Part shown: positions 37,319-56,487 of the stretch, piece by piece
Numbering within the stretch: the first letter of the stretch is position 1
How the letters are laid out: each line of letters starts with the position of its first letter
Source of the DNA: Gemmatimonadales bacterium
GTDB taxonomy: Bacteria; Gemmatimonadota; Gemmatimonadetes; Gemmatimonadales; GWC2-71-9
DNA: 58,151 bases
Direction of reading: 5' to 3'
NCBI GenBank assembly: GCA_025937755.1
Contig: JAICQR010000003.1
Location: 1-58,151, forward strand
Position numbers and translations under genes: made by a program
Notes under the pieces: model-generated
What the model was told of the DNA's origin: nothing
What the model saw: the letters and a program-made list of their open reading frames with translations, nothing else
Databases searched by the model: none

Positions 37319-38479
37319 ATGGCGACTGCCGCACGGCATTGCCCCTCCTGCCACACATCCCTCGCCGACGACGAGCAGTTCTGTCATCGGTGCCTGATCG
37401 CCACGCCCACCGAACCGGGCGTGGATCCGAGGCTGACGCCCACCAGCGCGGTGGAAGTGGGCCGGGTCCGGCGGGTGCTGGCTGAACAGTACCAGATCGA
37501 GCGGGTCGTTGGCGAAGGCGGGATGGCGACGGTGTTCCGGGCGGAGGACCTCAAGCACCGCCGGAAGGTGGCGGTGAAGGTGATGCGGCCGGAACTGGCC
37601 GCTACGCTTGGCGGCGACCGGTTCCTGCGCGAGGTCGAGATCGCAGCCAGGCTCAACCACCCGCACATCGTGTCGATGCACGATTCGGGCGACACCGATG
37701 GCGTACTCTACTACGTCATGCCGTTCGTCGAAGGAGAGTCGCTGACCCAGCGTCTCGCGCGCGAGGGCCCGCTGCCGGTGGCTGACGCGCTGCGAATCGC
37801 TCGGCAGGTGGCGGATGCGCTGGCGCACGCCCACAAGCGAGGGATCATCCACCGCGACATCAAGCCCGGCAACATCATGCTCTCGGAGGGCCATGCGCTA
37901 GTGGCTGACTTCGGGATTGCCCGCGCGCTGCGGAGCGGCGCCACTGCGATCACCACGGCGGGACTCGCCATCGGTACGCCCCACTACATGAGCCCGGAGC
38001 AGGCCACCGGCGCTCGCGACGTGGACGAACGCACCGATGTCTATGCGGTGGGCGCGGTGCTCTATGAGATGCTGACTGGCAAGCCGCCGTTCACCGGGCG
38101 TTCGGCGCAGGCGATCATCTCGCACAGCATCACCGAACCGCACCAGCCTCTCGCCATGAGCCGTCCGGGACTGCCTCCCTCACTGGAGCCACTGATGAGC
38201 CGGGCGCTTGCCAAGAGCGCAGCCGACCGCATCGCGTCGGCCGAGGCGCTCTCCCATGCCATTGCCGGAATCCAGATCGAGCTGACGCACGCTTCGGTGC
38301 CGCTGTCGAACGTGACGACTGCCGACCTGCGCCGGTGGGGTATACTCGGCGGCGCGCTGGTGCTGGCGCTGGTGCTGCTGTCATTCGTGGCCGGCCGGTG
38401 GGGAATGCCGCCCTGGCTGCTGTTCTCGGCCTTCGCAGCCCTCGGCGTGGCGACCATCATCCTCTGGCAAAAAAAGTAG
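37319..38479 (+). CDS. Ser/Thr kinase with N-terminal Zn ribbon and two C-terminal TM helices
   Basis: CPSC..CHRC; HRDIKPGN, DFG, GTPHYMSPE. Confidence 0.9.
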   Translation: MATAARHCPSCHTSLADDEQFCHRCLIATPTEPGVDPRLTPTSAVEVGRVRRVLAEQYQIERVVGEGGMATVFRAEDLKHRRKVAVKVMRPELAATLGGDRFLREVEIAARLNHPHIVSMHDSGDTDGVLYYVMPFVEGESLTQRLAREGPLPVADALRIARQVADALAHAHKRGIIHRDIKPGNIMLSEGHALVADFGIARALRSGATAITTAGLAIGTPHYMSPEQATGARDVDERTDVYAVGAVLYEMLTGKPPFTGRSAQAIISHSITEPHQPLAMSRPGLPPSLEPLMSRALAKSAADRIASAEALSHAIAGIQIELTHASVPLSNVTTADLRRWGILGGALVLALVLLSFVAGRWGMPPWLLFSAFAALGVATIILWQKK

Positions 38480-38998: not shown

Positions 38999-39117
38999 GG
39001 CGCCAAACGTAAAACGATCCGGGCAGCTCTTGCGGCTTCGGGTTTTGTTCGGTATCGTAGTCGGGTACGTGGCGGTATCGGTTCCGGCATCGTGGTTTTC
39101 ACCCGAAGGAGGCAGAC

Positions 39118-39579
39118 ATGGGAGTCAAGGCAATTCCCGACGGCTATCACAGCATCACCCCTTTCCTCATCGTCGAGGGCGCGGACAAGGCCATCGACTT
39201 CTACATCAGGGCATTCGGCGCCGTGCAGGTCTATCGCCTGGAGCACGAGGGCAAGGTGGCGCACGCCGAGCTCAGGATCGGCGACAGCATGATCATGGTC
39301 AGCGAGCCGATGGCCAACTCGGTGTATCAGGACCCCAAGTCGATCGGCGGCTCACCGGTCGGGCTGATGATCTACGTCGAAGACGCGGACAAGGTGTATC
39401 AGCAAGCCATCATGGCAGGCGCCAGCGCGATACGTCCGGTCGAGGACCAGTTCTACGGAGACCGGTCAGGCAACCTGCAGGATCCGTTTGGCCATCTGTG
39501 GACCATCTCGACGCACGTGGAAGATGTCTCGCCGGACGAGATCAATCGGCGCTTCGAGCAGGAGTATGCCAGGGCCTAA
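39118..39579 (+). CDS. VOC family protein (PhnB-like)
   Basis: IPDGYHSITP, HAELRIGDS, DQFYGDRSG..DPFGH.W. Confidence 0.9.
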   Translation: MGVKAIPDGYHSITPFLIVEGADKAIDFYIRAFGAVQVYRLEHEGKVAHAELRIGDSMIMVSEPMANSVYQDPKSIGGSPVGLMIYVEDADKVYQQAIMAGASAIRPVEDQFYGDRSGNLQDPFGHLWTISTHVEDVSPDEINRRFEQEYARA

Positions 39580-39785
39580 GGCTCAGGGCTTTCGCTGGTC
39601 TGCTCGCCACCCGGGGGCGACACCAGCGTGGCCACCAGCAGGATGGGGGCAAGTCGGAGGGAGGCTCTCATTCCCTACGCTAGGTCCGAAGCAGCCTCGG
39701 GGGAAGACGTACCCCTTCCGCCCGGCGGGATCGGAGGTAGGATATCCCCGTTAACTCACCCACCCCCCCGCGCCCGGAGTGCCCC

Positions 39786-40259
39786 ATGTCTCGCCGGCAG
39801 AGGACTCATCACGCAGTATCACTCGTGCTCGCTCTCGCAGTTGCCGCACCCGCCGCCCTGGTGGCGCAGGGCATCCCCGCCAATGCTCCGGCGCTGCGCA
39901 CGGCGTTGTCGGATCTCGCGACGCTTCGGTCCACCTACGTCGATGCCTTCAACAAGAAGGATGCGGCCGAGGTGACTTCGCTGTATGCCGATGACGCCGT
40001 CGTCATCATGGAGGATGGCACGTTGCTTAACGGCGGCCTCGAGATCCGCGCTGCCATGGCCGAAGCGGCGCCGACCTGGCCCCACGCGGTCATCGAGTCG
40101 GACACCACCCGGGTCTTCGGCAGCACCGCGGTGGACCTGGGCACATGGACCGCGCACCCGGCCGACGGCGGCGAGCTGAAGTTCCGCTACGTAACCATTC
40201 TCCGCCGGGGCCTCGACGGCTGGAAGATCACCCATGTGTCGCTGGTGCCATTGAAGTAG
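39786..40259 (+). CDS. Secreted SnoaL/NTF2-like (DUF4440) protein
   Basis: Signal peptide; AFNKKDA..LYADDA; DGWKI. Confidence 0.75.
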   Translation: MSRRQRTHHAVSLVLALAVAAPAALVAQGIPANAPALRTALSDLATLRSTYVDAFNKKDAAEVTSLYADDAVVIMEDGTLLNGGLEIRAAMAEAAPTWPHAVIESDTTRVFGSTAVDLGTWTAHPADGGELKFRYVTILRRGLDGWKITHVSLVPLK

Positions 40260-40313
40260 GAAGTGGGGAGTGGGAAGTGGAGGGGTGTTCTTCCCACTTC
40301 CCACTTCCCACTT
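40254..40313. repeat. Inverted heptamer arrays (RAGTGGG-like)x4 / (TTCCCAC)x3; possible hairpin terminator
   Basis: Read directly; contains the stop of the upstream gene. Confidence 0.8.
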
Positions 40314-40320
40314 GTAGTTC

Positions 40321-40342
40321 TGTCGCTCCCCCGTTGTAAGTT
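40321..40342 (+). promoter_or_regulatory. PafBC (RecA-NDp)-like promoter
   Basis: TGTCGC-N10-TAAGTT compared with consensus TGTCGG-N10-TANNNT; ATG follows after 7 nt with no SD. Confidence 0.65.
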
Positions 40343-40349
40343 GCCGGTA

Positions 40350-43300
40350 ATGCACCGCACCCTCGCACATCTGATGCAGATCGACCGCTCCTGGCCCATG
40401 GCCAGGAAGCTGCTGGTCGGCCCCGACCTGGGCTGGGGCCGCGAAGTGCTCTGCCTGCTGGCCCGTGATCTGGGAGGCTGGGTGGGCTGGGAAGCGGTGA
40501 CGCCGAAAATGCTGGCGGGAGAGCTGGCGTTCACGGCGATCGCCGACTCGGGCTATCGCGCCGGTACCGACCTCGAAATCGAGGCGGTATCCGAGGCTGC
40601 GCTGGACGCCGCGATCGCTGCGGGCGCGCTTCAGGGTTCGCTCGCGGCCCTGGCGCAGCGTCCCGGGATCCGGACCGCGGTCCATGATGCCATCCAGAAC
40701 CTGCGGATGTCGGGCCTCGGCGTCGACCAGGTGGCCAAGCGCGCCCCCGCGGGGACCACGGCCACGGATCTGGCCCGGATACTCGGTCACTACGTCGGGA
40801 CCCTCAGGGAGCGGCACCTGATTGACCCTGCCGACATCTTCCGATTCGGGCTGCAGGAGTTCGAGGTCGAGGCGCCGTATGTCCTGCCGCCGTTGGTGCT
40901 GGTGGCCGGCGATCTCTCGCTGCGCGGGCTCAGGGGCCAGTTCGTCCTGAAGCTGCTGTCCAAGGGGGCCGTCGGTCTCGATTCCGGGCCGGCACGGAAG
41001 GAGAATCCGCCGCTGACGGTTGCCTTCCAGACCCCGCTTGATCCCATGATGGAGCTGGAACAGCGGTCCACGCCCCGGCTCTTCGCCGCCACCACACCCA
41101 CCATCGAGTTGCGCGAGGCGCTGCGCCGTGCGATGGCAGACGGCTTCGCGTGGGGCGACGTCGAGATTGCCGCGACCGATGAAGATCTCTACGGCATCGA
41201 ACTCGAAGCGCTGACGTCGCATCTCGGAGTCCCCTGCACCTTCCGCAACGGCCTTCCTTTCGCCCGTTCGCGCATCGGCCGGGCTGTGGCGCGTTTCCTC
41301 GCGTTTCTCTCCCAAGGGCTCCCGGTCGACCTGTTGCGCTCGGCGCTGGAATCGGGCGAGCTGGCATCGCCAGATCAGCTTGTTGCTCCAGCTCGCCTGG
41401 CGAGCCGATTGAGGGAACTGAAGGTTGGCTGGGGCCGGGAGCGCCTCGAGAAGGCGCGCGATGATCTCGCGACCCCGACGACCGAGCGTATCCGCCAGCG
41501 CGAGGACGAGTCCGCCGAAGCATTCGACGCGCGGGTGGCTCGGTGGAAGGCCGAGTCCAGCGCGCTCGCCAGGTTGCTCGATTGCCTGCTGGAGTTGCTG
41601 CCGCCGGTGCCGGAGCGGGGTGATTTCAGTGACGTGCGGGTGACGCCTGCCGCGCTGGCTCGTGCAGTGCGACTCTACCTGGCCATGCTGCTCGAGGCGG
41701 AGGTGGCCGATGCCACGGCCAGGGCAGACCAGCACCTGGGCCAGCGACTGGTCGCGCGGCTGGAGCAGGTCGAGCGCCTGGGCACGGAGCTGACCACCTT
41801 CGCCGGTGCGCTGACTGAACTGCATGCGGTGCTGGAGGACCTCAGGGCGTGGCCCGAACTTCGTTCCGGGAGCGCTGGCAGTTCCGCTGGCGACGCGATC
41901 CACTTCACCGACCTTGCGCACGCGGGGCTCACCGGACGCAGGGCGACGTTCGTGGTGGGCCTCGATGCCGACCGGGTCAGCGGAGCGCGGGTGCAGGATG
42001 CCCTGCTGCCGGACAGCGTGCGCCACGCGCTCGATCCGGACGCGCTGCCTTCGCTCGCGATGCGGCAGGAAGAGCACGCCTGGAAGCTCGACCGCGCGCT
42101 GGCGCGGGTCACCGGCGCGATGACGCTTTCGTATTCGGTGCGCGGTACCGACAGCGGTAGCGCCACCGGACCGTCGCATCTCCTGCTGGACGCCTGGCGC
42201 CGCGCCGAAGGAAACGACGCGCTCGACTATGAGGGCCTGCGCGCGCACCTGGGGGAGCCAGTCTCCGCCGTGCCCTCGCATGGCGTCCGTTGTCTCGACG
42301 GTCGCGATGCCTGGCTCGCGGCCCTCTCCGACGGCCCGCTGCTGCTGGATGGCGCCGCGCAGGTGCGCGACGGCTTTCCCGCGCTCGATCGCGGGCTCCG
42401 CCTTCGCAGCGGGCTGGCGGCTCCGGTTTTCAGTCCCGTGCACGGGCTGGTCGCCGATCCCGCGGGGCTCGACCCCACCGCAAGCACCCGTCCGGTTTCG
42501 GCATCGCAGCTCGAGACCCTCGCGCGTTGCCCGCTGGCATGGCTCTACAGTTATGGAATGGGTGTCCGTCCACCGGAGGAGCCGGAGTACAACGCTGATG
42601 CCTGGCTCTCGTCGGCCGAACGGGGCTCGCTGCTGCACGAGGTGTACGAGCAATTCGGCCGGGAATATCAGGGGCGTCGCCCGGAACTGGAGTCGATGGC
42701 GGCCCGGCAGCGCGTGGAAGCCATAGCCCAGGAAAGAATAGACGCGTGGCGCGAGGACGTGCCGCCACCCAGTGAATCGGTATTTCTCGCCGAGTCGGAA
42801 GAAATCCGGCGTGCTGCGGTCGAATTCCGTTCCTGCGAGATCGAGGATCATGAGCAGACTGGTGCCGAACCGTTCGAGTTCGAGAAGGGCGTGGAGTATC
42901 GGGACGCAGTGCCGTTCGCAGTGGGTGACCGCAGCCTGACGGTGTATGGCAGGATCGACCGGGTGGACCGCCTGCCCGATGGGACGCTGCGGGTAGTGGA
43001 CTTCAAGACCGGCAGTGCGCGGCCGTACCAGGACTCGAATGGTGGCGGCCCCTTCCACGGCGGCCGCCATCTGCAGGCGGGGATCTACGCGTCCATCGCA
43101 GAGCAGCAACTCGGCGTCGCGGTGGACCGCTTCGAGTACCGCTTTCCGACCCACAAGGGCGGCAACTACATCGCCCGGTTCCTGCGCGACGAATTGACCC
43201 GTACCGCGGACGTAGTTGGAAGCCTGCTCGAGCACGTGCGCACCGGCGAGTTCGTCCCGACCACCGCAAGGGAAGACTGCACCTTCTGCGACGCGGCGCC

Positions 43301-43427
43301 CATCTGTCGCGTGAAGGTGGGCAACCACCACAAGGTCGAGTCTGTGCCCCGCGCCGACTGGGCCGCCGAGCACGCCGACTTGCTGAAAGCGTTTGACGGA
43401 ATGAATCAGCGTCGAGGAAAGCGATGA
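40350..43427 (+). CDS. addB: AddB-like subunit: degenerate helicase fold plus PD-(D/E)XK nuclease with Fe-S Cys
   Basis: SASQLETLARCP, GSLLH, GRIDRVD..VVDFKTG..LQAGIY, CTFCDAAPIC. Confidence 0.8.
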   Translation: MHRTLAHLMQIDRSWPMARKLLVGPDLGWGREVLCLLARDLGGWVGWEAVTPKMLAGELAFTAIADSGYRAGTDLEIEAVSEAALDAAIAAGALQGSLAALAQRPGIRTAVHDAIQNLRMSGLGVDQVAKRAPAGTTATDLARILGHYVGTLRERHLIDPADIFRFGLQEFEVEAPYVLPPLVLVAGDLSLRGLRGQFVLKLLSKGAVGLDSGPARKENPPLTVAFQTPLDPMMELEQRSTPRLFAATTPTIELREALRRAMADGFAWGDVEIAATDEDLYGIELEALTSHLGVPCTFRNGLPFARSRIGRAVARFLAFLSQGLPVDLLRSALESGELASPDQLVAPARLASRLRELKVGWGRERLEKARDDLATPTTERIRQREDESAEAFDARVARWKAESSALARLLDCLLELLPPVPERGDFSDVRVTPAALARAVRLYLAMLLEAEVADATARADQHLGQRLVARLEQVERLGTELTTFAGALTELHAVLEDLRAWPELRSGSAGSSAGDAIHFTDLAHAGLTGRRATFVVGLDADRVSGARVQDALLPDSVRHALDPDALPSLAMRQEEHAWKLDRALARVTGAMTLSYSVRGTDSGSATGPSHLLLDAWRRAEGNDALDYEGLRAHLGEPVSAVPSHGVRCLDGRDAWLAALSDGPLLLDGAAQVRDGFPALDRGLRLRSGLAAPVFSPVHGLVADPAGLDPTASTRPVSASQLETLARCPLAWLYSYGMGVRPPEEPEYNADAWLSSAERGSLLHEVYEQFGREYQGRRPELESMAARQRVEAIAQERIDAWREDVPPPSESVFLAESEEIRRAAVEFRSCEIEDHEQTGAEPFEFEKGVEYRDAVPFAVGDRSLTVYGRIDRVDRLPDGTLRVVDFKTGSARPYQDSNGGGPFHGGRHLQAGIYASIAEQQLGVAVDRFEYRFPTHKGGNYIARFLRDELTRTADVVGSLLEHVRTGEFVPTTAREDCTFCDAAPICRVKVGNHHKVESVPRADWAAEHADLLKAFDGMNQRRGKR

Positions 43428-46400
43428 AGCCGGAGCCGCAGGACCAGGCCGCGCGGAACCGCATCGCTGCTGATCTCGATGCAAACCTGCTGGTCGAGGC
43501 GGGCGCCGGCTCGGGCAAGACGACGGCGCTGGTGGGCCGGATGCTGGCGCTGGTGGAGCGGGGCACACCGGTGGAGCAGATCGCCGCGGTGACCTTTACC
43601 CGGAAGGCTGCCGCCGAACTGCGGGAGCGGTTCGAGGGCGAGCTGGAGCGGCGGGCCGCCACCTGCGACGAGCCGGAGACCGGTGCGCGGCTTCGCGACG
43701 CTCGGGATCACCTGGGCCGGTCATTCCTCGGCACCATTCACTCGTTCGCTGCGCGACTGCTGCGCGAGCATCCGCTCGAGGCGGGGCTGGACCCCGATTT
43801 CGCCGAAGTGCCTGAAGAGGAATGGGCCGGCATCCGGACCGAGTTCTGGCGCGGCTGGATCGAGCGCTGCCGGGTGGAGAACGATCCGGCGCTCGCCGAG
43901 CTCAGACGGCTCAACGTCGATCCCCGCGACCTTTTCGACGGGTTCCAGAACCGAGCACGGTTCCCCGACGTGAGCTTCCCCGCCCCCGATGCACTGCGGC
44001 CCGATGCAGGGCGCTGCCGCGCTGCGATCGAGGCGCTGCTGGCCCGGGCGCGGGAGCACCTGCCGCGAGAGAGCCCGGGACGAAAGTGGGATGACGCCCA
44101 GCGCTACTTCCTGCGGCTTGACCGGCTCCGCCGTAGCGGTGCCGACTGGGAAGATGTGGCGCGCTTCTGCGACGCATTGTCCGACAAGGCCGACATCAAG
44201 TTCACCATGTCGAACTGGGACATCACGGCCAGGCAGACGAAAAACGTCGCGCCGCGGGATGTGAGCCCCGTGCACGCGCTGCGCGAGGATCTGCTCGAAT
44301 TTCAGGAGACCCACGCGATTCCGCTGATCCGCGCATGGCGGGCACATCGTTATGCACCAGTGATGCGATTCATCGACCGGGCTGTTCGCGCGTTCAGCGC
44401 CCAGCGGCACGCCCGGGGAACGCTGGGCTTCGAGGACCTGTTGCAACTTGCGGCTCACCTGCTGCGACACTCGTCCGCGGCGCGTCGCCGGCTGGGCGAG
44501 CGCTATCGCCACCTGCTGGTGGATGAGTTCCAGGACACCGATCCCATCCAGGCGGAACTCTGCTTCCTGCTCGCGTCCGAGCCGGAGACCGGCGACAACT
44601 GGACCTCAGTGACACCGCGTCCCGGCGCGCTGTTCGTGGTAGGTGATCCGAAGCAGAGCATCTACCGCTTTCGTCGCGCTGATATCACCACCTACGAGCT
44701 GGTGAAGCAGTGCATCGCACGGACCGGTGCGGTACTCCAGCTCACCCAGAACTTCCGCTCGGTCGAAGCCATCGCGGGACTGGTCAACCACCATTTCCCC
44801 GGCGTCTTTCCCGAGACTGCCTCCGAGGTGCAGGCGTCGTTCGCACCGATGGTCACGACGATCACTGCCGAGCCGGCCGACGGCGTACGGCGCTTTCCGG
44901 TCCGGCCCGAAGCGAACAACAAGCAGGCCATTAACCTGGCCTGCGGCGCACAGGTGGCCACGCTCGTCGACCGGATGGTCAGCGGCGGGGGCTACCAGCG
45001 GTCCGATTTCCTGGTGCTTACCACCCAGACGGAGTCGCTGGCCAGCTATGCCAACGAACTGGCGGCTCGCAATATCGCGGTGAGTGTCACCGGTGCCGGC
45101 CTGACCGTGGGATACGAACTCGAGGAGCTGCTGGTGGTGCTGCGTGCCATCGCCGACCCCACCAACAAGGTGCTGGTGGTCGCAGCACTCGAGGGACTCT
45201 TTGCCGGCCTCACTCCGGCCGAGCTGCTCGACGCGCACCGCGGTGGAGCGCACTTCGATCTCACTGCGCCTCCTGCCGATCCATCGAGTCCCGCAGGAGT
45301 GGCGCTCGACCGGCTGCATCGCTGGTGGCGTGACTCGCAGCGGCTCCCGCCGGATGCATTGCTCGAACGGATCGTGGACGACACCGGCCTGCTGCCGCAC
45401 ACCGCGTCAGGTACCCTGGGAGACAACGCCGCAGGAGCGATTGCGGAAGTGATAGCGGTGGCGCGCAGCTCGGCGGCCAGCGGCTCGGGCAGCCTGGCGG
45501 AGGCGATGCACCGGATCGAGGCGGCGGCGGACAGCGCAGAGAGCGACGCTTCGCTTCGACCCGGCCTGCAGGATGCCGTGCGGGTGATGAATCTGCACAA
45601 GGCCAAGGGACTCGAGGCGCGGGTGGTGATTCTCGCCGCGCCGGTCAGCATGTGGACTCCGAATCCCGAAATCCATGTGAGCCGTCGGCCTGATGGCAGT
45701 GCGTTCGGTGCCATGAGCATCTGCAACGACAAGCGTGTCATCGCGGAGCCTGTTGAGTGGGATACGCTGTTCGAGCGGGAGGTCGAGTTTCTGGCCGCGG
45801 AGTTCGACCGGCTGCTGTACGTGGCCGCCTCCCGGGCCAGGCGCGAACTCTGGGTTGCCCAGCTTGAGTTCGAATTGAAGGACCGGAAGGCGGAGGACAA
45901 GTCGCTCTGGGCCCGGCTGGCGCCGGCGCTGGATCGGTTCGCCCGGGTGGAGGAAGTGGCCACCGAAGTACCGCCGGGCCGGCGCCTTGTGGAACGCGGC
46001 TCCGCAGCGATCCGTGCTGACGCCGAAGCCACCGATCACCGGAGGACGGCGGCCGCGTCGCCCCGCTGGATTCGCAATACCGTGACCCGGCTTGCCCGCG
46101 AGGAAGCCGCCGAGGCCGAGGAGCAGAAGCTGGTGCCGAGAGGCGGCCTGGGACGGGACTGGGGCACCGCCGTCCATGAATGCATCGAAGGCATGGGCCG
46201 GGGCCGGAGCGGGCCGAACCTCGAACGCTACGTGCGGGCGGTGGCGGGAAAGCACGACTTGTCGGACATCGAGACTGGACGCCTGCTGCAACTGGTGCGG
46301 CAGTTCGAGACGTCGGAAGCATGGGCCCGGCTGTCGGCAGGGGGCGAGACCAGGCAGGTCGAACTTCAGGTGGCCGCAATCGAAACCAGCGAGTCCGGCG

Positions 46401-46618
46401 TGCCGCAACTGGTCGAGGGCGTCATCGACGCGGTCGCCCAGATCGACGGAGAATGGACCGTCATGGACTGGAAAACCGACGGCGCGGACGACGCCGAGTG
46501 GGGGCGGCGCCACGAGCAGTACCAGCGGCAGGTTGACCGGTACGTTCGGGTGCTGAGCAGGCATGCCGACGGCCCGGTGACCGGTCGTGTGGTGCGGCTT
46601 CAGGCGGATGCCGGCTGA
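43424..46618 (+). CDS. addA: AddA-like UvrD/SF1 helicase with C-terminal nuclease
   Basis: AGAGSGKT, TFTRKAA, DEFQDT, VGDPKQSIYRFR, HKAKGLE, YVAASRA, GVIDAV..DWKTD. Confidence 0.88.
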   Translation: MKPEPQDQAARNRIAADLDANLLVEAGAGSGKTTALVGRMLALVERGTPVEQIAAVTFTRKAAAELRERFEGELERRAATCDEPETGARLRDARDHLGRSFLGTIHSFAARLLREHPLEAGLDPDFAEVPEEEWAGIRTEFWRGWIERCRVENDPALAELRRLNVDPRDLFDGFQNRARFPDVSFPAPDALRPDAGRCRAAIEALLARAREHLPRESPGRKWDDAQRYFLRLDRLRRSGADWEDVARFCDALSDKADIKFTMSNWDITARQTKNVAPRDVSPVHALREDLLEFQETHAIPLIRAWRAHRYAPVMRFIDRAVRAFSAQRHARGTLGFEDLLQLAAHLLRHSSAARRRLGERYRHLLVDEFQDTDPIQAELCFLLASEPETGDNWTSVTPRPGALFVVGDPKQSIYRFRRADITTYELVKQCIARTGAVLQLTQNFRSVEAIAGLVNHHFPGVFPETASEVQASFAPMVTTITAEPADGVRRFPVRPEANNKQAINLACGAQVATLVDRMVSGGGYQRSDFLVLTTQTESLASYANELAARNIAVSVTGAGLTVGYELEELLVVLRAIADPTNKVLVVAALEGLFAGLTPAELLDAHRGGAHFDLTAPPADPSSPAGVALDRLHRWWRDSQRLPPDALLERIVDDTGLLPHTASGTLGDNAAGAIAEVIAVARSSAASGSGSLAEAMHRIEAAADSAESDASLRPGLQDAVRVMNLHKAKGLEARVVILAAPVSMWTPNPEIHVSRRPDGSAFGAMSICNDKRVIAEPVEWDTLFEREVEFLAAEFDRLLYVAASRARRELWVAQLEFELKDRKAEDKSLWARLAPALDRFARVEEVATEVPPGRRLVERGSAAIRADAEATDHRRTAAASPRWIRNTVTRLAREEAAEAEEQKLVPRGGLGRDWGTAVHECIEGMGRGRSGPNLERYVRAVAGKHDLSDIETGRLLQLVRQFETSEAWARLSAGGETRQVELQVAAIETSESGVPQLVEGVIDAVAQIDGEWTVMDWKTDGADDAEWGRRHEQYQRQVDRYVRVLSRHADGPVTGRVVRLQADAG

Positions 46619-47676
46619 TGGCGGCCAAGCTGCAGCGCTGGGTGGACCTGCTGGCGGCGCTATTGCGCCACCGGTATCCCGTCTCACTCGAAGAGCTGAT
46701 GCGCGATGTCCCGGATTACCAGGGCCAGGAGCACGAGTCGATGCGCCGCAAGTTCGAGCGCGACAAGAAGGAGCTGCGCGAGTTCGGCATCCCCATCGAG
46801 ACCATCGGCGACGACGAAGGCGTCGGATACCGGCTTCGCATGCGTGACTTCTACCTCCCCTACCTCCAGCTGGTGGACGAGGAACGGGTGCCGGCCCGGC
46901 CCGGCCGGCTCCCGGGCGATCCCTGGCGTCAACTCGCGCTGCTGCAGTTCACGTCCGACGAACTGCGAGTCGTGGCGGAGGCGGCCGCACGCGTCGCGGC
47001 GCTGGGCGACCCGGCGCTGGCGTCCGACGTGCGCACCGCGCTCAGGAAGCTCGCCGTGGACCTGCCGATGGATGGCGCCGCCAGCACGGTTGAACATGTT
47101 CACGGGACCGAGCAGCACAATGCCGCCACGCTGGCGCTGCTCGGTTCGGCGGTGCAGGCCCGGAAGCGGATCACGTGTACTTATCACAGCATCGGCAGCG
47201 ATGCCCGCTCCGAGCGAAACCTCGAACCGCTGGGACTCTTCTTCCTGAGCCGGGCGTGGTATCTCGCCGCCCGGCAACCCGGCGAGAAGCTGGTGAAGAA
47301 CTTCAGGGTGAGCCGGATGTCCGGGGTGAAGGTCGGCACTCGCCCTGAGTCGCCCGACTTCGAGCGCCCTGCCGGATGGAGCCTGCAGCAGCACGCCCGC
47401 GCCCGGAGTTCGTGGGAACTGGGTGATGATGACCTCGTCGATGTGGATGTGCACTTTCTCCGGGATACTGGTGCCACCGCGGCCGCCGTGCGGCTGGGCA
47501 CGCCGGTGGAGGGCAGTCCGGATACCCTGAGATATCAGGTGCGTCGCATCGATGCGTTCGTGAGGTGGCTGCTGCCACTGGGAGATGCAGCGGAGCTGGT
47601 TGCGCCGGCGCCGGTGGTGGCGGAATGGCGCCGCCTTGCCGGGGCCACCCTCGCGGTCTATCAGGAAGCACCATGA
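46618..47676 (+). CDS. pafB: HTH-WYL-WCX regulator, PafB-like
   Basis: RRKFERDKKELREFGIPIE (PafB-type helix), RAWYLAA, FRVSRM. Confidence 0.8.
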   Translation: MAAKLQRWVDLLAALLRHRYPVSLEELMRDVPDYQGQEHESMRRKFERDKKELREFGIPIETIGDDEGVGYRLRMRDFYLPYLQLVDEERVPARPGRLPGDPWRQLALLQFTSDELRVVAEAAARVAALGDPALASDVRTALRKLAVDLPMDGAASTVEHVHGTEQHNAATLALLGSAVQARKRITCTYHSIGSDARSERNLEPLGLFFLSRAWYLAARQPGEKLVKNFRVSRMSGVKVGTRPESPDFERPAGWSLQQHARARSSWELGDDDLVDVDVHFLRDTGATAAAVRLGTPVEGSPDTLRYQVRRIDAFVRWLLPLGDAAELVAPAPVVAEWRRLAGATLAVYQEAP

Positions 47677-48629
47677 GCACCACCGCCGCCGATCAGCTGC
47701 GCCGGCTGCTCCTGCTGCTGCCTGCACTGGCCGACGACCAGGAACATTCGATCGCCCAGGTGGCGGAACAACTGGGCGTCGATCGGAAGACCTTGATGGC
47801 GGACCTGCAGGCGCTGGCCAACCGCACCGACGTGCCGGGCGGTTTCGTCGAGGGGGTTTCCATCACCATTGATGGTGAGAACCTCTCGGTCTTCAGCAGC
47901 CAGTTCCGCCGTCCGATGCGGCTCACCGTGGGCGAGCTGGCCGCGCTGGACCTGGGGCTCGCAATGCTGCGCGCGGAGCGGACGCCCGATGAGCATGCCG
48001 TGATGGAGCGCGCGCGAGCCCGGCTGGGTGAAGCGCTGGCCGAGTTGCCGGGCGACGAACCCGAGCTTCGCGTTGCCGAACTGGCCGGGCACCAGGCCGG
48101 CGCGACCAGCATTCACAAGGCGCTGCGTCAGGCGGCGCATGCGCGCCATCGCATCACCATCCACTATCGCAAGGCCGCCGATCCGGAATCGTCGTCCCGC
48201 GTGATTTGCCCCTACGGCCTCATCTTTTCCTCGGGCAGCTGGTATGCGGTGGCGCATTGCGAACGTTCGGAGGGATTGAGGGTCTTCCGTCTCGACCGGA
48301 TCGAACGGGTGGAACCGGCGGAAGGCGGATTTGAACAGCCCGACGATTTCGTCTTCGACAGCGTGATACGGGACGGCCGGGTATTTCATACCGAGGATCC
48401 GGTCGAGACCGCGGCCATCCGCTACTCGCCCCGGATCGCCCGATGGATAGCCGAGCGCGAGGGCACGGCGCTGGCCGAGGACGGTTCGCTTGTCATCGAG
48501 CATCCGCTGGGAGACGACGAGTGGGTGATCCGGCATGTGCTGCAGTACGGCCCCGATGCCGAGATTCTCGGCCCGGACCGGCTCCGCGCGCGGCTGGTGG
48601 AGCTGCTCGGCGGCATGGCAATCGGGTGA
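47673..48629 (+). CDS. pafC: HTH-WYL-WCX regulator, PafC-like
   Basis: LRRLLLLLP..AEQLGV..L.ADL, RPMRLT.GE, GSWYAVAHC, FRLDRI, LQYGPDAEILGP; ATGA overlap. Confidence 0.8.
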   Translation: MSTTAADQLRRLLLLLPALADDQEHSIAQVAEQLGVDRKTLMADLQALANRTDVPGGFVEGVSITIDGENLSVFSSQFRRPMRLTVGELAALDLGLAMLRAERTPDEHAVMERARARLGEALAELPGDEPELRVAELAGHQAGATSIHKALRQAAHARHRITIHYRKAADPESSSRVICPYGLIFSSGSWYAVAHCERSEGLRVFRLDRIERVEPAEGGFEQPDDFVFDSVIRDGRVFHTEDPVETAAIRYSPRIARWIAEREGTALAEDGSLVIEHPLGDDEWVIRHVLQYGPDAEILGPDRLRARLVELLGGMAIG

Positions 48630-48650
48630 GTGGTGGCCTTACCTTGAGGC

Positions 48651-48947
48651 ATGTCCCGCGCATTCGTGAACGACGACGCCGGCGGAGAGGCGCTGCCGGA
48701 ACACCGGTATCCGCTGCCTCCCGCTGACGACCCCGAGTACCTCGTGGCGGTGGCCCGGGCGCTGCTGGCCGGCGCCGGTGCCGGCGACTCTGCCGGCGCG
48801 GAAGAGGCCACCGGCTTCGTATTTGGCGCCCCCGAACTCACGGCCCAGGTGCAGCTGATCCGGGACGACGCCATCGCGTCGGGAGATGAGCGGCTCGAGC
48901 AACTGGCCGAGCGCTTTCTGCGACGAGCTGGAGCCGGCAAGCAGTGA
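48651..48947 (+). CDS. Small hypothetical protein with MSRAFV N-terminus
   Basis: GAGG RBS; GTGA overlap with the rhomboid gene. Confidence 0.7.
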   Translation: MSRAFVNDDAGGEALPEHRYPLPPADDPEYLVAVARALLAGAGAGDSAGAEEATGFVFGAPELTAQVQLIRDDAIASGDERLEQLAERFLRRAGAGKQ

Positions 48948-49708
48948 CGCCGTGGGTTCGGCGGCTGCTCATCGCCAACGTCGCAGTATTCGCGCTGACG
49001 ATGGGGCTTCCCTATCTCGGCTATCTCCTGGCGTTCCAGCCCGTGAGCGTCCTGGCCCGGCCATGGACGGCGCTGACGTACATGTTTGTCCATGCCGGCT
49101 TCTGGCACATTCTCTTCAACATGATTTCGCTCTACTTCTTCGGTCCCCGGGTCGAGGAACGCCTTGGCAGCACGCGGTTCCTGCTGTTCTACACCATCAG
49201 CGGCCTCGGCGGCGCCGCCCTGACCTTCCTCACGCCCATGGCGACCATCGTCGGTGCGTCTGCTGCGACGTTCGGGGTCCAGCTCGCCTTCGCCCGCTAC
49301 TGGCCGCGGGTGCAGATCCTGATCTGGGGCGTGGTGCCGATCGAGGCACGGTGGCTGGTGGTGATCATGACGTTCCTGTCATTGCGCGGTGGCCTCTCCG
49401 GCGGCAGTGGCATTGCTCACTGGGCTCACCTGGGTGGCTACATCGCTGCGGGGATCTTCCTGCTGGTGATGGACCGCACCAGCTCGGCCCGCAGCTTCAA
49501 GCAGAAGGCGCGCGCACCTGTCGCTTCCCTGAGCCCCTTGGCCGACCGCGCCCAGCTGGCCCGCTGGTCGAAGATCCGGGCCGAGGACCTGCACGAGGTG
49601 AACCGGGCAGAACTGGAGCGGATTCGCGGGGTCCTGGCGACGGGCGGAGCGGGGAAGTTGAGCGAGGGGGACAGGGAGTTTCTCGAAAGATTCAGCAGGA
49701 GTAGCTGA
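48944..49708 (+). CDS. Rhomboid intramembrane serine protease
   Basis: HAGFWHILFNM, VGASA, AHWAHLGG. Confidence 0.9.
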   Translation: MTPWVRRLLIANVAVFALTMGLPYLGYLLAFQPVSVLARPWTALTYMFVHAGFWHILFNMISLYFFGPRVEERLGSTRFLLFYTISGLGGAALTFLTPMATIVGASAATFGVQLAFARYWPRVQILIWGVVPIEARWLVVIMTFLSLRGGLSGGSGIAHWAHLGGYIAAGIFLLVMDRTSSARSFKQKARAPVASLSPLADRAQLARWSKIRAEDLHEVNRAELERIRGVLATGGAGKLSEGDREFLERFSRSS

Positions 49709-49710
49709 GC

Positions 49711-49788
49711 AGTATGGAAGTGTGGAAGTCTTGGGCAGTATTGTGCACCACACTGCCCAATACTCTCACACTACCATACTCTCATACT
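49711..49788. repeat. Inverted octamer arrays / hairpin between convergent genes
   Basis: AGTATGGA-AGTGTGGA facing CTCACACT-ACCATACT-CTCATACT; core stem TTGGGCAGT/ACTGCCCAA. Confidence 0.7.
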
Positions 49789-50393
49789 TCAAATCCGCAC
49801 TGCGGCCTCTCCCCATACTGGCAGCACTGCTTCACCGGAGCATCGAGTGCCGCTGACAGGAACGCGCGCAGCGCCGAGCAGACCTCGGGCCGGCGGCGAA
49901 CTGCGGTGGCGAGCGGGCAGAGCGCGCCTTCGATCCGGATGGTGTCGCCGTCGAGTTCGACCGTCGCTGCCGCGCCCAGCTGGTCCAGCAGCTCTGCGGT
50001 GAGTACCCGCAGCGACTCACGGTCGTGCGGTGCGGCCGGCGCCGACGGCGCCAGGCGATGCCCGGTCCGCTCCATCAGCGCGACCAGTTCATCCTCCGGG
50101 AACCGATCCGCCAACTCTTCCACCAGGGCAGCCAGCACCGGCGCGTAGGCGCGGGAGAATCTGTCGGCCGCATCGTCCGGCACGCGATACAGGGTCGCGG
50201 GCTTGCCGGCACCCGGCAGCCGCCGAATCCCGGTTGCCTCGGCGAAGCCGTCTCGCTGGAGCTGGGTCAGTTGCTGGCGAACGGCGTTGCCCGACACGCC
50301 CAATTCGGCCGCCAGTTCGTCCACCGTATGCTCCCGGCGGCGCAGCATCGCGACGATTCGTGCCCGGCTCCCTGAAGTCGGCTGCTCAATCAT
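49782..50393 (-). CDS. HTH regulator with C-terminal Cys-rich domain (SufR-like)
   Basis: TVDELAAELGVSGNAVRQQL, GKPA..Y, CPL..VC..CC..C. Confidence 0.8.
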   Translation of the reverse strand: MIEQPTSGSRARIVAMLRRREHTVDELAAELGVSGNAVRQQLTQLQRDGFAEATGIRRLPGAGKPATLYRVPDDAADRFSRAYAPVLAALVEELADRFPEDELVALMERTGHRLAPSAPAAPHDRESLRVLTAELLDQLGAAATVELDGDTIRIEGALCPLATAVRRRPEVCSALRAFLSAALDAPVKQCCQYGERPQCGFEV

Positions 50394-50444
50394 GGCCCGA
50401 ATTTGCCTGAATCAAGGCTCAAACGCAATATGTGAAGGAATTAC

Positions 50445-50473
50445 TTGACAAATTGACCCTCTGGGCGCATCAT
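50445..50473 (+). promoter_or_regulatory. Sigma70-like promoter candidate
   Basis: TTGACA-N17-CATCAT upstream of the DUF4142 gene. Confidence 0.4.
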
Positions 50474-50545
50474 AGGTGATGCCGGCCGCATCTCCTTGCG
50501 GTACTGCGGCGTAACTCTTCACCTCACACCGTCCTGGAGTCACCC

Positions 50546-51136
50546 ATGCGCTCGCTCAGCTTGCCATCCCTCCTGCTCGCAGCCGGTTCCGCGCTGCTGC
50601 TCACGACCGCCTGTTCCCGGCCCGATTCGGCGGAGCAGCAGGAAACCAGTGCAGCTACCGCCCCGCCGCCTGCCGCCGCACCGGCACCCGAACTGGACGA
50701 TCCGACCATCGTCGCGATCTTCGACGCCGCCAATACCTACGACATCGAGACCGGCGGGCTCGCCGCCGAGAAGTCCACCAATCCCGAAGTGAAGGCGATG
50801 GGCGAGAACTTCGTCGCCGCCCATACCCAGGTGCGCCAGAAGGGCCGGGAACTCGCCGCCAAGCTGGGCGTGACCCCGACTGCCCCGGCCGAGAATCCGT
50901 TGGGCGACGCCCATGTGGCCGCCATGGCTACGCTGAAGTCGTTGAGCGGGGCCGAGTTCGACCGGGCGTGGCTGGATCACGAGATCGCATTCCATCAGGC
51001 CGTTATTGATGCGGTGAACACCACCCTGCTGCCGGCGCTCGATAATGAGGAAGTGAAGGCGCTGGTCGAGTCGGTGGCGCCGGCGTTCGTGGCGCACATG
51101 GAAGGCGCCAAGGCGCTTCGGGCCAAGCTCCAGTAA
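50546..51136 (+). CDS. DUF4142 family lipoprotein
   Basis: TTAC lipobox; AN..DIE.G.LA, LSGAEFDRAW..HEI.FH. Confidence 0.8.
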   Translation: MRSLSLPSLLLAAGSALLLTTACSRPDSAEQQETSAATAPPPAAAPAPELDDPTIVAIFDAANTYDIETGGLAAEKSTNPEVKAMGENFVAAHTQVRQKGRELAAKLGVTPTAPAENPLGDAHVAAMATLKSLSGAEFDRAWLDHEIAFHQAVIDAVNTTLLPALDNEEVKALVESVAPAFVAHMEGAKALRAKLQ

Positions 51137-51146
51137 GTTCAAGTTC

Positions 51147-52667
51147 ATGAGCGAGAACACGGAACTGCGTGGCCCTGATCTCCAAGTTGGGGTCAGGGAA
51201 TCGGAGCTGGCGGACGGCGCGATGCTGCTGGGACACGCGCATGGCGAGCCGGTGCTGATCGCCCGGGTGGGCGATGCAGTCCACGCCATCGGCGCCACCT
51301 GCACCCACTGGAGCGGTCCGCTGTCGGAAGGGCTGCTGGTGGATGGCCAGGTGCGCTGTCCCTGGCACCACGCCTGCTTCGATCTCGCCACCGGCGAGGC
51401 AGTCCATGCACCAGCGCTCAAGCCGGTGCCGTGTTTCGTCGTCCGAAGGAAGGATGGAAGGATTTCGGTGGGCGACCGGCTGGAAATTCCGGCCGCCCAG
51501 CCGCCCGATGTCCCCACCCCCGAGCGCATCGTCATCGTGGGTGCGGGTGCTGCCGGCAATGCCGCGGCGGAGATGCTGCGTCGGGCCGGCTTCCAGGGCC
51601 GGGTCACCATGATCGGAATGGAATCGGACCTGCCGTACGACCGGCCCAACCTTTCCAAGGACTACCTGGCCGGCAATGCCCAGGAAGAATGGATCCCGCT
51701 CCGGTCGCGCGAGTTCTACGCCGAGCAGGCCATCGATGTCATCCTCGATGCCACGGCGGTGGCCATCGATGCCGCCGCGCATGAAGTGAAACTGCACGAC
51801 GATCGCAGCGTTCCGTACGACCGGCTGCTGCTGGCCACCGGCGCCGAGCCGGTACGTCTGACCATTCCCGGTGCGGACCTGGCGCACGTGCATCTGCTCA
51901 GGTCGTTCACCGACAGCAAGGCGATCATCGCAGCCGCAGTCTCGGCGAAGCAGGTGGTGGTGGTTGGTGCCAGCTTCATCGGGCTGGAAGTTGCGGCGTC
52001 GCTCCGGGCCCGGGGCCTCGCCGTGGCGGTGGTCGCCCCCGACAAGATCCCATTCGAGAAGGTGCTCGGCGCGGACGTGGGGCAGTGGGTGCGGAGCGTG
52101 CACGAGGAGCACGGCGTCGAGTTCCATCTTGGGCAGGGTGTCGAGTCGATTGCAGACGACAGCGTGACACTCACCGACGGCACGCGGCTGCCGGCGGATT
52201 TGGTGGTGCTCGGGGTGGGTGTGCGGCCGAGGCTGGCGCTGGCGGAGAGCGCGGGCCTCAGGATGGAGAAGGGCGTGGTGGTGGACAGCGAGATGTGGAC
52301 GTCGCACGCGGACATCTTCGCGGCGGGGGACATAGCCCGCTTTCCCGAGGCCCGCTCAGGCGAGATGGTGCGGATCGAGCACTGGGTGGTGGCGGAGCGT
52401 CAAGGGCAGACCGCCGCACGCAACATGCTCGACGCGGGGGAGCAGTTCGACAGCGTGCCGTTCTTCTGGAGTTCGCACTACGACACGTCAGTCACCTATG
52501 TGGGGCATGCGCCGAGCTGGGATGAGGCGGTGCTCGATGGCGACCTCGCTGCGCGCGACGCGACCATCACCTACAAGCGCGCCGGGAAGACGCTCGCTGT
52601 TGCCACTATCGGCCGCGACCTCGCGGCGCTGCGGGCTGAGGTCGAGATGGAACGGGCATCGAATTGA
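51147..52667 (+). CDS. Rieske [2Fe-2S] plus FAD/NAD oxidoreductase fusion (AIFM3-like)
   Basis: CTH..CPWH; GAGAAG, PYDRPNLSK, GASFIGLE, AAGDIA, VPFFWS. Confidence 0.9.
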   Translation: MSENTELRGPDLQVGVRESELADGAMLLGHAHGEPVLIARVGDAVHAIGATCTHWSGPLSEGLLVDGQVRCPWHHACFDLATGEAVHAPALKPVPCFVVRRKDGRISVGDRLEIPAAQPPDVPTPERIVIVGAGAAGNAAAEMLRRAGFQGRVTMIGMESDLPYDRPNLSKDYLAGNAQEEWIPLRSREFYAEQAIDVILDATAVAIDAAAHEVKLHDDRSVPYDRLLLATGAEPVRLTIPGADLAHVHLLRSFTDSKAIIAAAVSAKQVVVVGASFIGLEVAASLRARGLAVAVVAPDKIPFEKVLGADVGQWVRSVHEEHGVEFHLGQGVESIADDSVTLTDGTRLPADLVVLGVGVRPRLALAESAGLRMEKGVVVDSEMWTSHADIFAAGDIARFPEARSGEMVRIEHWVVAERQGQTAARNMLDAGEQFDSVPFFWSSHYDTSVTYVGHAPSWDEAVLDGDLAARDATITYKRAGKTLAVATIGRDLAALRAEVEMERASN

Positions 52668-52683
52668 TTAAGCCCCCAGCAGC

Positions 52684-53838: not shown

Positions 53839-53884
53839 TGGTCGCCCTCCGGTGTAGTTTCCGTCGACTCTCTCCCGGTATGCG

Positions 53885-54766
53885 ATGGGAATATATCCCC
53901 AGCCCAATCTTTGGCAGTGCGGCCCCTTCGCGCTCAAGCATGCGCTGGTTGCCCTGGGCATCCTCAAGGATGAGCGCGACATCAGTCGCGTGGCGGGCAC
54001 CCACTGGTGGCACGGCACCGACGAGATCCAGCTGGGGCGGGCGGCCCGGAAGTACGGGTGCGACCTGCTGCTGGTGCGCCGCTACGACGCGGACCGGGCC
54101 AAGCGAGCCCTGGCGGCGTACCTCAAGCGGGGCGTCCCGGTGCTGCTCTGCGTGGAGGAGTGGAGCCACTGGCTCACGGTAGTCAAGTACGACAGCAGCC
54201 GATTCATCCTGCTGGACAGCCGGGTCCCGACCGTGGTGGACATCGCCACCTGGCCCCAGCTCAAGCGCCGCTGGGTGTTCCACGAAGAGGATGAACTGGA
54301 GGACGGCGACGTCCGGACGCTCTATGATCTCCACCCGGTGGTTCCCCGGTTCCGGCCCACCAGCAAGGCCCAGTTCTCCCTGGCCCGGGCCCGCGCCCTC
54401 CGCAAGAACCGCCGCCTGGCCGAGCGCTGGGACGACTATCTCGGCGATCTCCTGGCCATCTGCCGGCCTCGCACGTCGCGGATCTCCAAGGCGATCTCGC
54501 TGGGCGAATTCATCCGTCGCCACGGCGCGATGATGCTGGAGTCGATCGACTACTGGCACGGCTCGGTCGAAGTCCGCTCGGTGCGACAAATCCTGAACAA
54601 TTTGCATTTCGTGGCCGACACTTACGGCCTGATCATCCATGAGGACGACGAAAAGCGCGCCATTGCCAGCATCACGGCACTGCTGACGTTGTGGACCGCC
54701 GCGGAGTTCGGGGTGCGGCAGGTGTACGGGCCGCGGGAAGTCAAGAAGCGGAGGAAGCGGCGATAG
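53885..54766 (+). CDS. Peptidase C39-like (papain-fold) domain protein with unknown C-terminus
   Basis: QPNLWQCGPFAL (Q..C), SHWLTV (H), ILLDS (D); no TM or ABC domain. Confidence 0.7.
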   Translation: MGIYPQPNLWQCGPFALKHALVALGILKDERDISRVAGTHWWHGTDEIQLGRAARKYGCDLLLVRRYDADRAKRALAAYLKRGVPVLLCVEEWSHWLTVVKYDSSRFILLDSRVPTVVDIATWPQLKRRWVFHEEDELEDGDVRTLYDLHPVVPRFRPTSKAQFSLARARALRKNRRLAERWDDYLGDLLAICRPRTSRISKAISLGEFIRRHGAMMLESIDYWHGSVEVRSVRQILNNLHFVADTYGLIIHEDDEKRAIASITALLTLWTAAEFGVRQVYGPREVKKRRKRR

Positions 54767-54767
54767 A

Positions 54768-56479: not shown

Positions 56480-56487
56480 ACGAAAAG

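Follow-up and report, generated by a model that had tools for sequence, protein, structure and literature searches.

A PafBC-type regulator pair encoded with an AddAB-like helicase-nuclease behind a candidate PafBC-type promoter in Gemmatimonadales

In a soil Gemmatimonadales assembly (GCA_025937755.1) we analysed a 58,151-bp stretch of DNA (contig JAICQR010000003.1, positions 1 to 58,151 of the forward strand), referred to below as the window. Read from its sequence, the window carries one plus-strand operon of four genes with overlapping stops and starts, which encode an AddB-like and an AddA-like protein followed by a PafB-like and a PafC-like regulator. Directly before addB lies a candidate promoter of the type used by PafBC. 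On balance, we consider it probable that the regulator pair is an activator that senses single-stranded DNA (ssDNA) and autoregulates this leaderless addB-addA-pafB-pafC resection operon. The evidence is wholly computational and comes from metagenome-assembled genomes, and published work is quoted from the passages of each source that were covered. A preliminary description had interpreted the operon as a candidate self-contained PafBC-type system for damage sensing and resection. Every computationally testable part of that interpretation came out favourable, and two results go beyond it: the PafBC-type promoter candidate directly before addB and an association of the pair with resection machines generally.

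In the mechanism that we propose, the helix-turn-helix (HTH) domain of PafB would read the GTC of a -26-type element 10 nt upstream of the -10 hexamer, that of PafC would bridge to region 4 of the sigma factor, and ssDNA bound in the WYL/WCX tunnel would activate the pair. The regulator would drive its own synthesis and that of the enzyme that enlarges the ssDNA signal. The result would be a positive, self-limiting damage loop on a leaderless transcript, in which the sensor and the ssDNA-making enzyme rise together. We infer that the pair functions as a heterodimer, activates rather than represses, has ssDNA as its ligand and is induced by damage, and that the whole forms a feed-forward loop. 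For comparison, adnA is strictly dependent on PafBC in mycobacteria.

The operon and the promoter candidate before addB

The in vivo motif reported for PafBC, tGTCgg(N10)tA(N3)T, consists of a -26 element and a -10 element with no -35 element (Mueller 2021). We found that positions 40321-40342 agree with it at all upper-case positions and in spacing, with TGTCGC as the -26-type element and TAAGTT as the -10 hexamer. The motif ends 7 nt 5' of the ATG of addB, so that the arrangement is leaderless. (RecA-NDp is the name of an older promoter motif.) In the form TGTC-N12-TANNNT the motif has a single occurrence on both strands of the 58,151-bp window, and a relaxed form found the same site only. 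The closest relative, locus L080, carries TGTCGCCCCCCTGTTGTAACTT at the same offset before addB. A simple sigma-70 scan of 39700-49000 gave no promoter, no TTG stands at the -35 place of the addB promoter, and no separate promoter for pafBC was seen within the operon. Because the window's only promoter of this type precedes addB and none was seen for pafBC, the regulator would drive its own synthesis.

The leaderless arrangement is a usual one in this genome. Among 1646 crude gene calls, TANNNT hexamers were concentrated 5-7 nt 5' of start codons (28, 38 and 13, where other positions have about 5), and in about 80-90 of the 1646 a TANNNT ended 5-8 nt before the start codon; this pile-up indicates that leaderless transcription is usual here. 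The other leaderless-type promoters of the genome have a weak TTG at the -35 position and lack TGTC at -16; the addB promoter is the reverse.

One could suppose mere adjacency, in which a housekeeping leaderless promoter drives the operon, the TGTC match is due to chance and the pair regulates other genes. Leaderless-type -10 hexamers are indeed common in the genome, the window element TGTCGC differs from the TGTCAC that dominates in the phylum, and many related operons have no strict match. We regard this explanation as very unlikely, since the sole motif in 116 kb of window strands falls in the 90-nt gap before addB, where a genome-wide frequency of 26 per 4.65 Mb of strands leads one to expect about 5e-4. 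Furthermore, the element is kept in L080 despite a 4-nt indel between hairpin and motif, and the enrichment and positional clustering of the motif, given below, were replicated in independent loci.

The four genes are listed in Table 1. The addB stop (TGA, 43425-43427) shares bases with the addA ATG at 43424 (ATGA), the addA stop (46616-46618) with the pafB ATG at 46618 (TGATG), and the pafB stop (47674-47676) with the pafC ATG at 47673 (ATGA), and these junctions, read directly from the sequence, are the overlaps named in the preliminary description. All four frames carry a coding signal, with GC content at third codon positions (GC3) of 0.78-0.82 against 0.47-0.51 at second positions (GC2), in a genome of 67% GC. 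The operon had earlier been taken to start at position 40321, but this is the first base of the promoter-like motif and no start codon stands there. The best addB start is likely ATG 40350, because L080 keeps this ATG, with third-position changes 3' of it and the 4-nt indel 5' of the motif. The start of the longest open reading frame (ORF), GTG 40263, is less likely: the L080 pattern also speaks against it, and it sits within a strong hairpin.

Table 1. Coordinates of the operon genes, the promoter candidate and the upstream stem-loop in the window
Feature	Position	Strand	Description
Promoter candidate, PafBC-type, bipartite	40321..40342	+	TGTCGCTCCCCCGTTGTAAGTT; TGTCGC 40321-40326; TAAGTT 40337-40342
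addB-like gene (P0001, 1025 aa)	40350..43427	+	Motor-less helicase-like N-terminal body, C-terminal RecB-type nuclease
addA-like gene (P0002, 1064 aa)	43424..46618	+	UvrD-type SF1 motor, C-terminal RecB-type nuclease
pafB-like gene (P0003, 352 aa)	46618..47676	+	Winged HTH - WYL - WCX
pafC-like gene (P0004, 318 aa)	47673..48629	+	HTH_PafC - WYL - WCX
Stem-loop	40260..40316	+	Heptamer repeats; immediately 3' of the SnoaL-like gene stop (40257-40259)

The hairpin at 40260-40316 has an energy of -43.5 kcal/mol (z -7.2), which none of 200 shuffles equalled. It has a terminator-like shape without a T run, a similar hairpin is found in L080, and it sets the operon apart from the upstream SnoaL-like gene. 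Heptamer-like repeat hairpins or arrays recur just 5' of leaderless-type promoters on many other contigs (C21, C52, C62, C144, C167 and others), with the repeat types CCCACTT/AAGTGGG, CACTTCT, CCGAGCCG, CCTACCG and GACCCCT. The genes that flank the operon are ordinary (a Ser/Thr kinase, a SnoaL-like protein, a rhomboid and an oxidoreductase), and 39109-57942 is collinear with one related species at 79-89% nucleotide identity. GC content is uniform. Ser/Thr protein kinase genes also lie near other pafBC loci: besides the one at 37319-38479 in the window, they were seen in L032, L037 and L056 (cluster c10, kinase with PD40 repeats).

As for expression, one metatranscriptome library (X20) gave short contigs over addB (40503-40754, 8 differences), pafB (47109-47423) and pafC (47947-48176 and 48531-48758). 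RNA runs were kept as contigs, and these few, from one library, are no more than an expression hint. Runs X5 and X6 covered everything evenly, as DNA would.

The WYL pair and the helicase-nuclease

In single-sequence searches of solved structures, the best match of P0003 was PafB and that of P0004 was PafC. A profile of 24 PafB-like proteins gave 111.4 bits against PafB (7p5x_AY), 47.2 against PafC, 43.4 against 8tp8, which we take to be DriD (the search output names it a DeoR-family transcriptional regulator), and 22.4 against BrxR. For a profile of 27 PafC-like representatives the values were 140.9 bits against PafC (7p5x_AX), 87 against PafB, 71 against DriD, 40 against CapW and 39 against BrxR. 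By these profile scores against the Protein Data Bank (PDB), used in place of a tree with actinobacterial anchors, P0003 falls with PafB and P0004 with PafC, and neither with DriD, BrxR or CapW, which bears out their earlier assignment. Actinobacteria are not reached among the 150 best representatives, and two of the homologues, P0158 and P0258, are no closer to solved PafBC than P0004. The close homologues, the best 120 matches, are all at least 48% identical, and automatic annotation from one source calls many of them 'proteasome accessory factor B'.

The domain content agrees with this assignment. P0003 matches the Pfam family WYL at 1.3e-16 and WCX with 23.2 bits, slightly below the 23.9-bit cut-off, and P0004 matches HTH_PafC at 6e-14, WYL at 4e-22 and WCX at 9e-16. 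The PafB-type helix described earlier, the FERDKKELREFGIP stretch, is present in P0003, and the PafC-type features attributed to the second WYL protein were found in its HTH_PafC match and in PafC as its best profile match. HTH_PafC was rejected as a discriminating family, as it also matches in E. coli, B. subtilis, Thermus and Deinococcus. The two genes keep together: pafB and pafC were adjacent in 38 of the 40 related loci fetched first.

We then compared the residues to which function has been assigned in PafBC. In PafB, R46 and R50 read the GTC triplet, and K5, R8, S40, K52, R56 and Y76 make backbone contacts (Mueller 2021). Residues K4, R7, E40, R44, R48, K50 and R54 of P0003 align with K5, R8, E42, R46, R50, K52 and R56 of PafB, and in the pairwise alignment the counterpart of S40 is E38. 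The two GTC readers, R44 and R48 in P0003, are invariant across 24 PafB-like sequences. Binding of ssDNA has been assigned to R181, Y196, R204, R208, R211 and R214 of PafB and to R201 and R204 of PafC (a 2025 Science Advances paper). R200, Y215, R230 and R233 of P0003 align with R181, Y196, R211 and R214 and are invariant in the family alignment, and the counterpart of R208 is K227. In P0004, R206 and R209 correspond to R201 and R204 of PafC in the alignment and are invariant in 27 family representatives.

A heterodimer prediction for P0003 with P0004 scored 0.49, against 0.00 for the best of three controls, with at least 30% of contacts shared between runs and a partner pLDDT (predicted local distance difference test) of at least 64. 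The mark was attained by 58 of 80 solved complexes and by 2 of 110 mismatches, at scores of 0.60 or less by 7 of the 80 and by both mismatches, and because PafBC complexes are solved, the score may reflect mere likeness. The prediction gives weak support to the pair. From sequence comparison, P0003 and P0004 would together make up a PafBC-type heterodimeric regulator with HTH-WYL-WCX subunits. Eight homologues of 685-763 residues (P0125, P0128, P0140, P0143, P0158, P0159, P0165 and P0214) match P0004 in their C-terminal half; they look like the fused PafB-PafC forms known in some Actinobacteria and might be gene-call fusions.

The other two proteins resemble the subunits of AddAB-type enzymes, which resect the ends of double-strand breaks and yield single-stranded DNA. 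P0002 matches the Pfam families UvrD-helicase (8e-52), UvrD_C and PDDEXK_1 (1.6e-07), has the Walker A sequence AGAGSGKT and both the D..DxK and the QxxxY nuclease motifs, and in NCBIfam matches addA_alphas (7.8e-60) and addA_Gpos (1.5e-56), both under the equivalog cut-offs. Its best solved relative is B. subtilis AddA (3u44_A, 4.1e-25). P0001 has a C-terminal PDDEXK_1 match (1.3e-34), no Walker A motif was seen on reading its sequence, and it has no sequence-level match in the PDB. The top matches of its AlphaFold model, which is of moderate quality (pLDDT 70.7), are the AddB chains 3u44_B and 4ceh_B (E 2.8e-24, TM 0.43/0.40), followed by AdnA and RecC. Invariant in eight P0001 orthologues are C727, C977, C980 and C986 together with D870, D884, K886, Q909 and Y913, and all eight retain the D..DxK and QxxxY motifs. 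Four cysteines of AddB have an iron-sulfur role. P0001 and P0002 thus appear to form an AddAB-type helicase-nuclease, to which resection activity is ascribed from knowledge of the family.

The window is contig C26 of a 2.32-Mb assembly of 226 contigs that is 80% complete. The operon's two WYL genes are the only ones in this assembly, and no UvrD-plus-nuclease or PDDEXK_1 protein was found in it beyond the operon's two. A genome search returned one LexA; RecA was not found in the assembly, whose 80% completeness makes this uninformative. The lack of pafA and pup noted earlier for the window held more widely, as Pup ligase was found neither in this genome (80% complete) nor in any of 71 genomes of its family. 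Across the phylum, 5 of 151 genomes have it, and these belong to two deep families (G003, G006, G009, G015 and G018). These had two to four Pup ligase matches per genome, and those of G006 are not on the contig of its weak PafC-like match.

Neighbours and promoter motif of pafBC-like loci across Gemmatimonadota

Related loci were gathered in two ways: 40 were chosen from the better PafC-like matches, with long contigs favoured, and 80 were the best of 391 in a species collection, where the matches listed were Gemmatimonadota-type loci only. Removal of 11 duplicates left 110 distinct loci including the window; the relatives among them are not independent and the sampling is not random. Because a crude GC3-based gene caller fused or missed genes, neighbours were tallied by tblastn with family-checked representatives, and the starts of neighbouring genes were taken from tblastn ends. 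Two loci were re-labelled by hand before the tallies, L041 to AddAB type 1 (with the AddA C-terminus at bases 4-402) and L058 to AddAB type 2.

We found a helicase-nuclease in the flank of 52 of the 110 loci, and in 44 of the 78 with at least 4 kb upstream of pafB; in 33 loci it stands immediately upstream on the same strand. Four kinds occur among the 52: AddAB type 1, the window's own (13), AddAB type 2 (15), RecBCD (7), in full RecC-RecB-RecD sets, and a TM0106-nuclease/SF1-helicase (17), in which a nuclease of about 1200 residues is fused to an SF1 helicase and matches anti-phage helicase models weakly. These four kinds are non-orthologous, and by sequence the association appears to be with end-resection machines generally, not with addAB alone. 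The order addB-addA-pafB-pafC with a gap of at most 200 nt recurs in 8 other distinct loci (L080-L084, L105, L130 and L041), and the window's gene order thus recurs in at least 8 other species. Two further loci have the same order with a larger gap, one has pafB-pafC-addB-addA and one is convergent. The synteny survey thus bore out the adjacency reported for the window and added non-orthologous resection enzymes elsewhere. A PafC tree with 109 rows requires at least 30 switches of neighbour type, and PafCs that are near sisters on it adjoin AddAB type 1, RecBCD and AddAB type 2.

Several neighbours other than these enzymes recur. Downstream of pafC there are HP0729-like and VWA-domain genes, often with their own PafBC-type motif (L034, L036, L039, L040, L043, L086-L093 and many others), and upstream there are Uma2 and DUF2779 genes; in the same-genus locus L031 a DUF2779 gene replaces addBA. 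The pafB-like genes of L036 and L040 and the AddA-like gene of L042 match in several pieces, as possible frameshifts or decaying copies. One record titled 'Bacillota bacterium' (L103, JBLMWC010000019.1) carries a Gemmatimonadales-type addB2-addA2-pafB-pafC with a PafC 51% identical, which could be mis-binning, mislabelling or transfer.

The promoter motif is concentrated around these loci. In a first set (41 loci, 727,605 bp) the motif had 47 matches, compared with 4-17 for 11 other orderings of TGTC and 4-17 for spacings of 8-16 other than 12; 12 of the matches lay no more than 12 nt from a start codon, compared with 0-1 in controls. A second set of 69 further distinct loci (935,922 bp) gave 53 matches, against 0-15 for other orderings and 5-18 for other spacings. 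The matches peak just 5' of pafB, about 7 kb upstream, where helicase-nuclease operons start, and 2-4 kb downstream; more than 5 kb downstream of pafBC they drop to 0-3 per 100 kb. On the pafBC strand lie 83 of the 100 matches, and the dominant form in the phylum is TGTCA(C/G)A(C/G) followed by a C-rich stretch. Across five relatives with near-complete genomes, a stricter motif gave 11 matches, 0-4 per genome, against none for the reversed control. Five of these belong to the pafBC locus and one stands immediately 5' of an unlinked addB; the other five lie elsewhere, before hsdM, a polysaccharide-export gene and three genes of unknown function. The hsdM site (L181, G165:C2:683412-686433) stands 21 nt before the gene, which encodes a type I restriction-modification methylase, far from pafBC. 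Among 13 upstream regions of unlinked addB genes, a motif was found directly before the gene in G045 and about 30 nt before it in G096, and four motifs, two of them with CA instead of TA, lie 190-380 nt upstream.

An operator role is equally conceivable for a site overlapping the core promoter, and WYL-WCX repressors released by ssDNA have been described (PMC11662680). The pair might then bind the TGTC element and keep the operon off until ssDNA releases it, as in CapW/BrxR-type regulators. This seems to us quite unlikely. The distance to the -10 is fixed at 12 nt (47 and 53 matches, compared with 4-18 for other gaps), as in promoters activated by PafBC; the promoter has no TTG at the -35 position, unlike the other leaderless-type promoters of the genome; and the resemblance of the proteins to PafB and PafC is far greater than to CapW or BrxR. 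In addition, the literature explains a heterodimer with two different HTH domains by sigma adaptation. Activation is therefore favoured by the fixed -10 spacing, the missing -35 and the likeness to PafB/PafC rather than CapW/BrxR.

Several observations weigh against an autoregulated PafBC-type resection operon. Mycobacterial pafBC has been reported not to be damage-induced, so that autoregulation here would depart from the known system. Within the proteins, the counterpart of PafB R204 in P0003 is E223, and the apparent counterpart of the PafC sigma contact D62 is T65 of P0004, although D67, two positions further in the same strand of the protein, is acidic and conserved. P0001 scored 43.1 bits for addB_alphas against a cut-off of 486.5, and P0002 203.3 bits for addA_alphas against 860.75; as the equivalog cut-offs were missed widely, we name the proteins AddAB-like and place them in a divergent subfamily. 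Across the whole genome TGTC-N12-TANNNT has 26 matches, 11 of them before ORFs, among which only addB is repair-related. Of 28 evaluable helicase-nuclease operon starts, only 9 have the strict motif nearby, and of 55 loci in which no helicase-nuclease gene precedes pafB, only 18 have it before pafB; before unlinked addB it was found in none of six class- or phylum-level relatives and not in G195. Linkage is also incomplete. In family f7, 40 of 47 genomes have window-type AddB and 7 of 47 have a PafC-like match. In families f1-f3, 11 genomes, the window's included, have an AddB match: it lies beside pafBC in 3 and probably in 1 more, across a contig break, it is unlinked in 2, and 5 have no PafC-like match at E 1e-10. 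Lastly, all five relatives that are 95-100% complete, one of the same genus included, had no match to PDDEXK_1, which makes the resection genes accessory in the family. The term 'self-contained' used in the preliminary description was therefore too strong: the operon does hold both parts, but elsewhere this type of AddAB is also encoded apart from any PafC-like gene, or in genomes where no such gene was found.

Eight of the 11 ORFs behind a genomic motif match were Pfam-scanned and comprise an ABC ATPase, a Ser/Thr kinase, a PD40 protein, an HD-domain protein, a response regulator and three unknowns. The scan yields no repair regulon in the window's own genome, as far as an 80%-complete assembly in which RecA was not found can show, and the motif marks no repair gene besides addB. 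A second genomic site, TGTCGGAGGGCGTCACTAATTT, ends 7 nt before the HD-domain gene (G000:C183:688-1703, L076) on a 1.8-kb contig, and another, C70:3054, ends 9 nt before the gene of a family-less protein of 165 residues.

Over the phylum, a PafC-like gene is present in 87 of 301 genomes and window-type AddB in 79 of 301. This patchiness (AddB in 3/125 genomes of the window's family, PDDEXK_1 in 0/5 near-complete relatives) would suit a defence or mobile module, in which the helicase-nucleases are accessory anti-phage or anti-plasmid enzymes under WYL regulation and break repair is at most a side role. The frequent turnover of neighbour type on the PafC tree, the recurring nuclease-like neighbours Uma2 and DUF2779, the extra motif site before hsdM and the weak match of the SF1 helicase-nuclease to anti-phage helicase models point the same way, and WYL regulators have been described alongside defence systems (PMC9122601). 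However, the window flanks are ordinary and, over 39109-57942, collinear with a related species; GC is uniform; PADLOC gave generic helicase, Cas4 and WYL matches and no system-specific model; no AddAB/RecB-type enzyme other than that of the operon was found in this genome; and the partners are canonical recombination enzymes, full RecC-RecB-RecD sets among them. We consider a primary defence role unlikely, and it is compatible with the same regulatory mechanism.

The autoregulated operon thus remains our preferred reading of the window. More tentatively, and with rather less confidence, we suggest that PafBC-type sigma adaptation may be older and cross-phylum, and that the Gemmatimonadales pairs may be portable cassettes that repeatedly captured, or were captured by, resection machines behind leaderless -26/-10 promoters. 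As the pair is linked to four kinds of end-resection enzyme, resection is indicated as the source of the signal, in a compact and testable system. If true, such repeated non-orthologous coupling would be natural genetic evidence for resection-generated ssDNA at breaks as the ligand of PafBC-type regulators.

Relation to known WYL regulators and resection enzymes

In the passages covered, PafBC is treated as an actinobacterial DNA-damage pathway with its genes in the Pup-proteasome locus, 'PafBC-like' proteins of other phyla are mentioned at the domain level only, and the source of the ssDNA signal of PafBC in the cell is an open question. A literature search found no paper linking PafBC with Gemmatimonadota. 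For WYL proteins and Gemmatimonads nothing relevant was found among the top-listed titles and abstracts, and for WYL and AddAB only the work on DriD was relevant among the top-listed entries, in which AddAB is merely a possible source of ssDNA. What is new here is the PafBC family together with its promoter grammar in another phylum, without proteasome context and in cis to several end-resection enzymes. Orthologue-like pairs in Gemmatimonadota would extend sigma adaptation beyond Actinobacteria. The design is unlike the mycobacterial one: the sensor is encoded inside its own apparent target operon, and the regulon looks small and confined to the neighbourhood. A cultured species may offer a workable model; a record under the name Gemmatimonas aurantiaca (L157) has pafBC beside AddA-like genes.

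The closest known system is PafBC of M. smegmatis and other Actinobacteria (7p5x, 9fnd, 6sj9). It shares with the pair described here the adjacent paralogous HTH-WYL-WCX genes with B preceding C, the reciprocal best profiles, the GTC-reading arginines, the WYL arginine pairs, the pattern and spacing of the bipartite promoter, and a resection helicase-nuclease as target, which is adnAB in mycobacteria and presumed here. In contrast to actinobacterial PafBC, the pair lies outside a Pup-proteasome locus, a location that belongs to the actinobacterial gene setting and not to how PafBC works. It is in an operon with its presumed target and is presumably autoregulated. Its apparent regulon is small, with 0-4 strict sites per genome in five relatives, compared with about 150 genes reported for PafBC (PMC8635444). 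The element preferred in Gemmatimonadota is TGTCAC, not TGTCGG, and identity to the solved proteins is low.

DriD of Caulobacter crescentus is likewise a WYL-WCX activator switched on by ssDNA, and its authors name resection by AddAB as one possible origin of this ssDNA. Unlike the pair here, DriD forms homodimers and binds a 20-bp palindrome, in the passages covered it is not encoded with addAB, and at 43 and 71 bits against the family profiles it scores well under PafB and PafC. CapW and BrxR have the same HTH-WYL-WCX architecture and are co-located with nuclease or defence genes, but these are homodimeric repressors, with 22-40 bits against the family profiles. Among the enzymes, B. subtilis AddAB (3u44, 4ceh) and AdnAB/RecBCD share with P0001 and P0002 the set of one UvrD-type motor and two RecB-type nuclease domains, with the four AddB cysteines. 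Compared with B. subtilis AddAB, the pair here is divergent, and it is accessory rather than core within its family.

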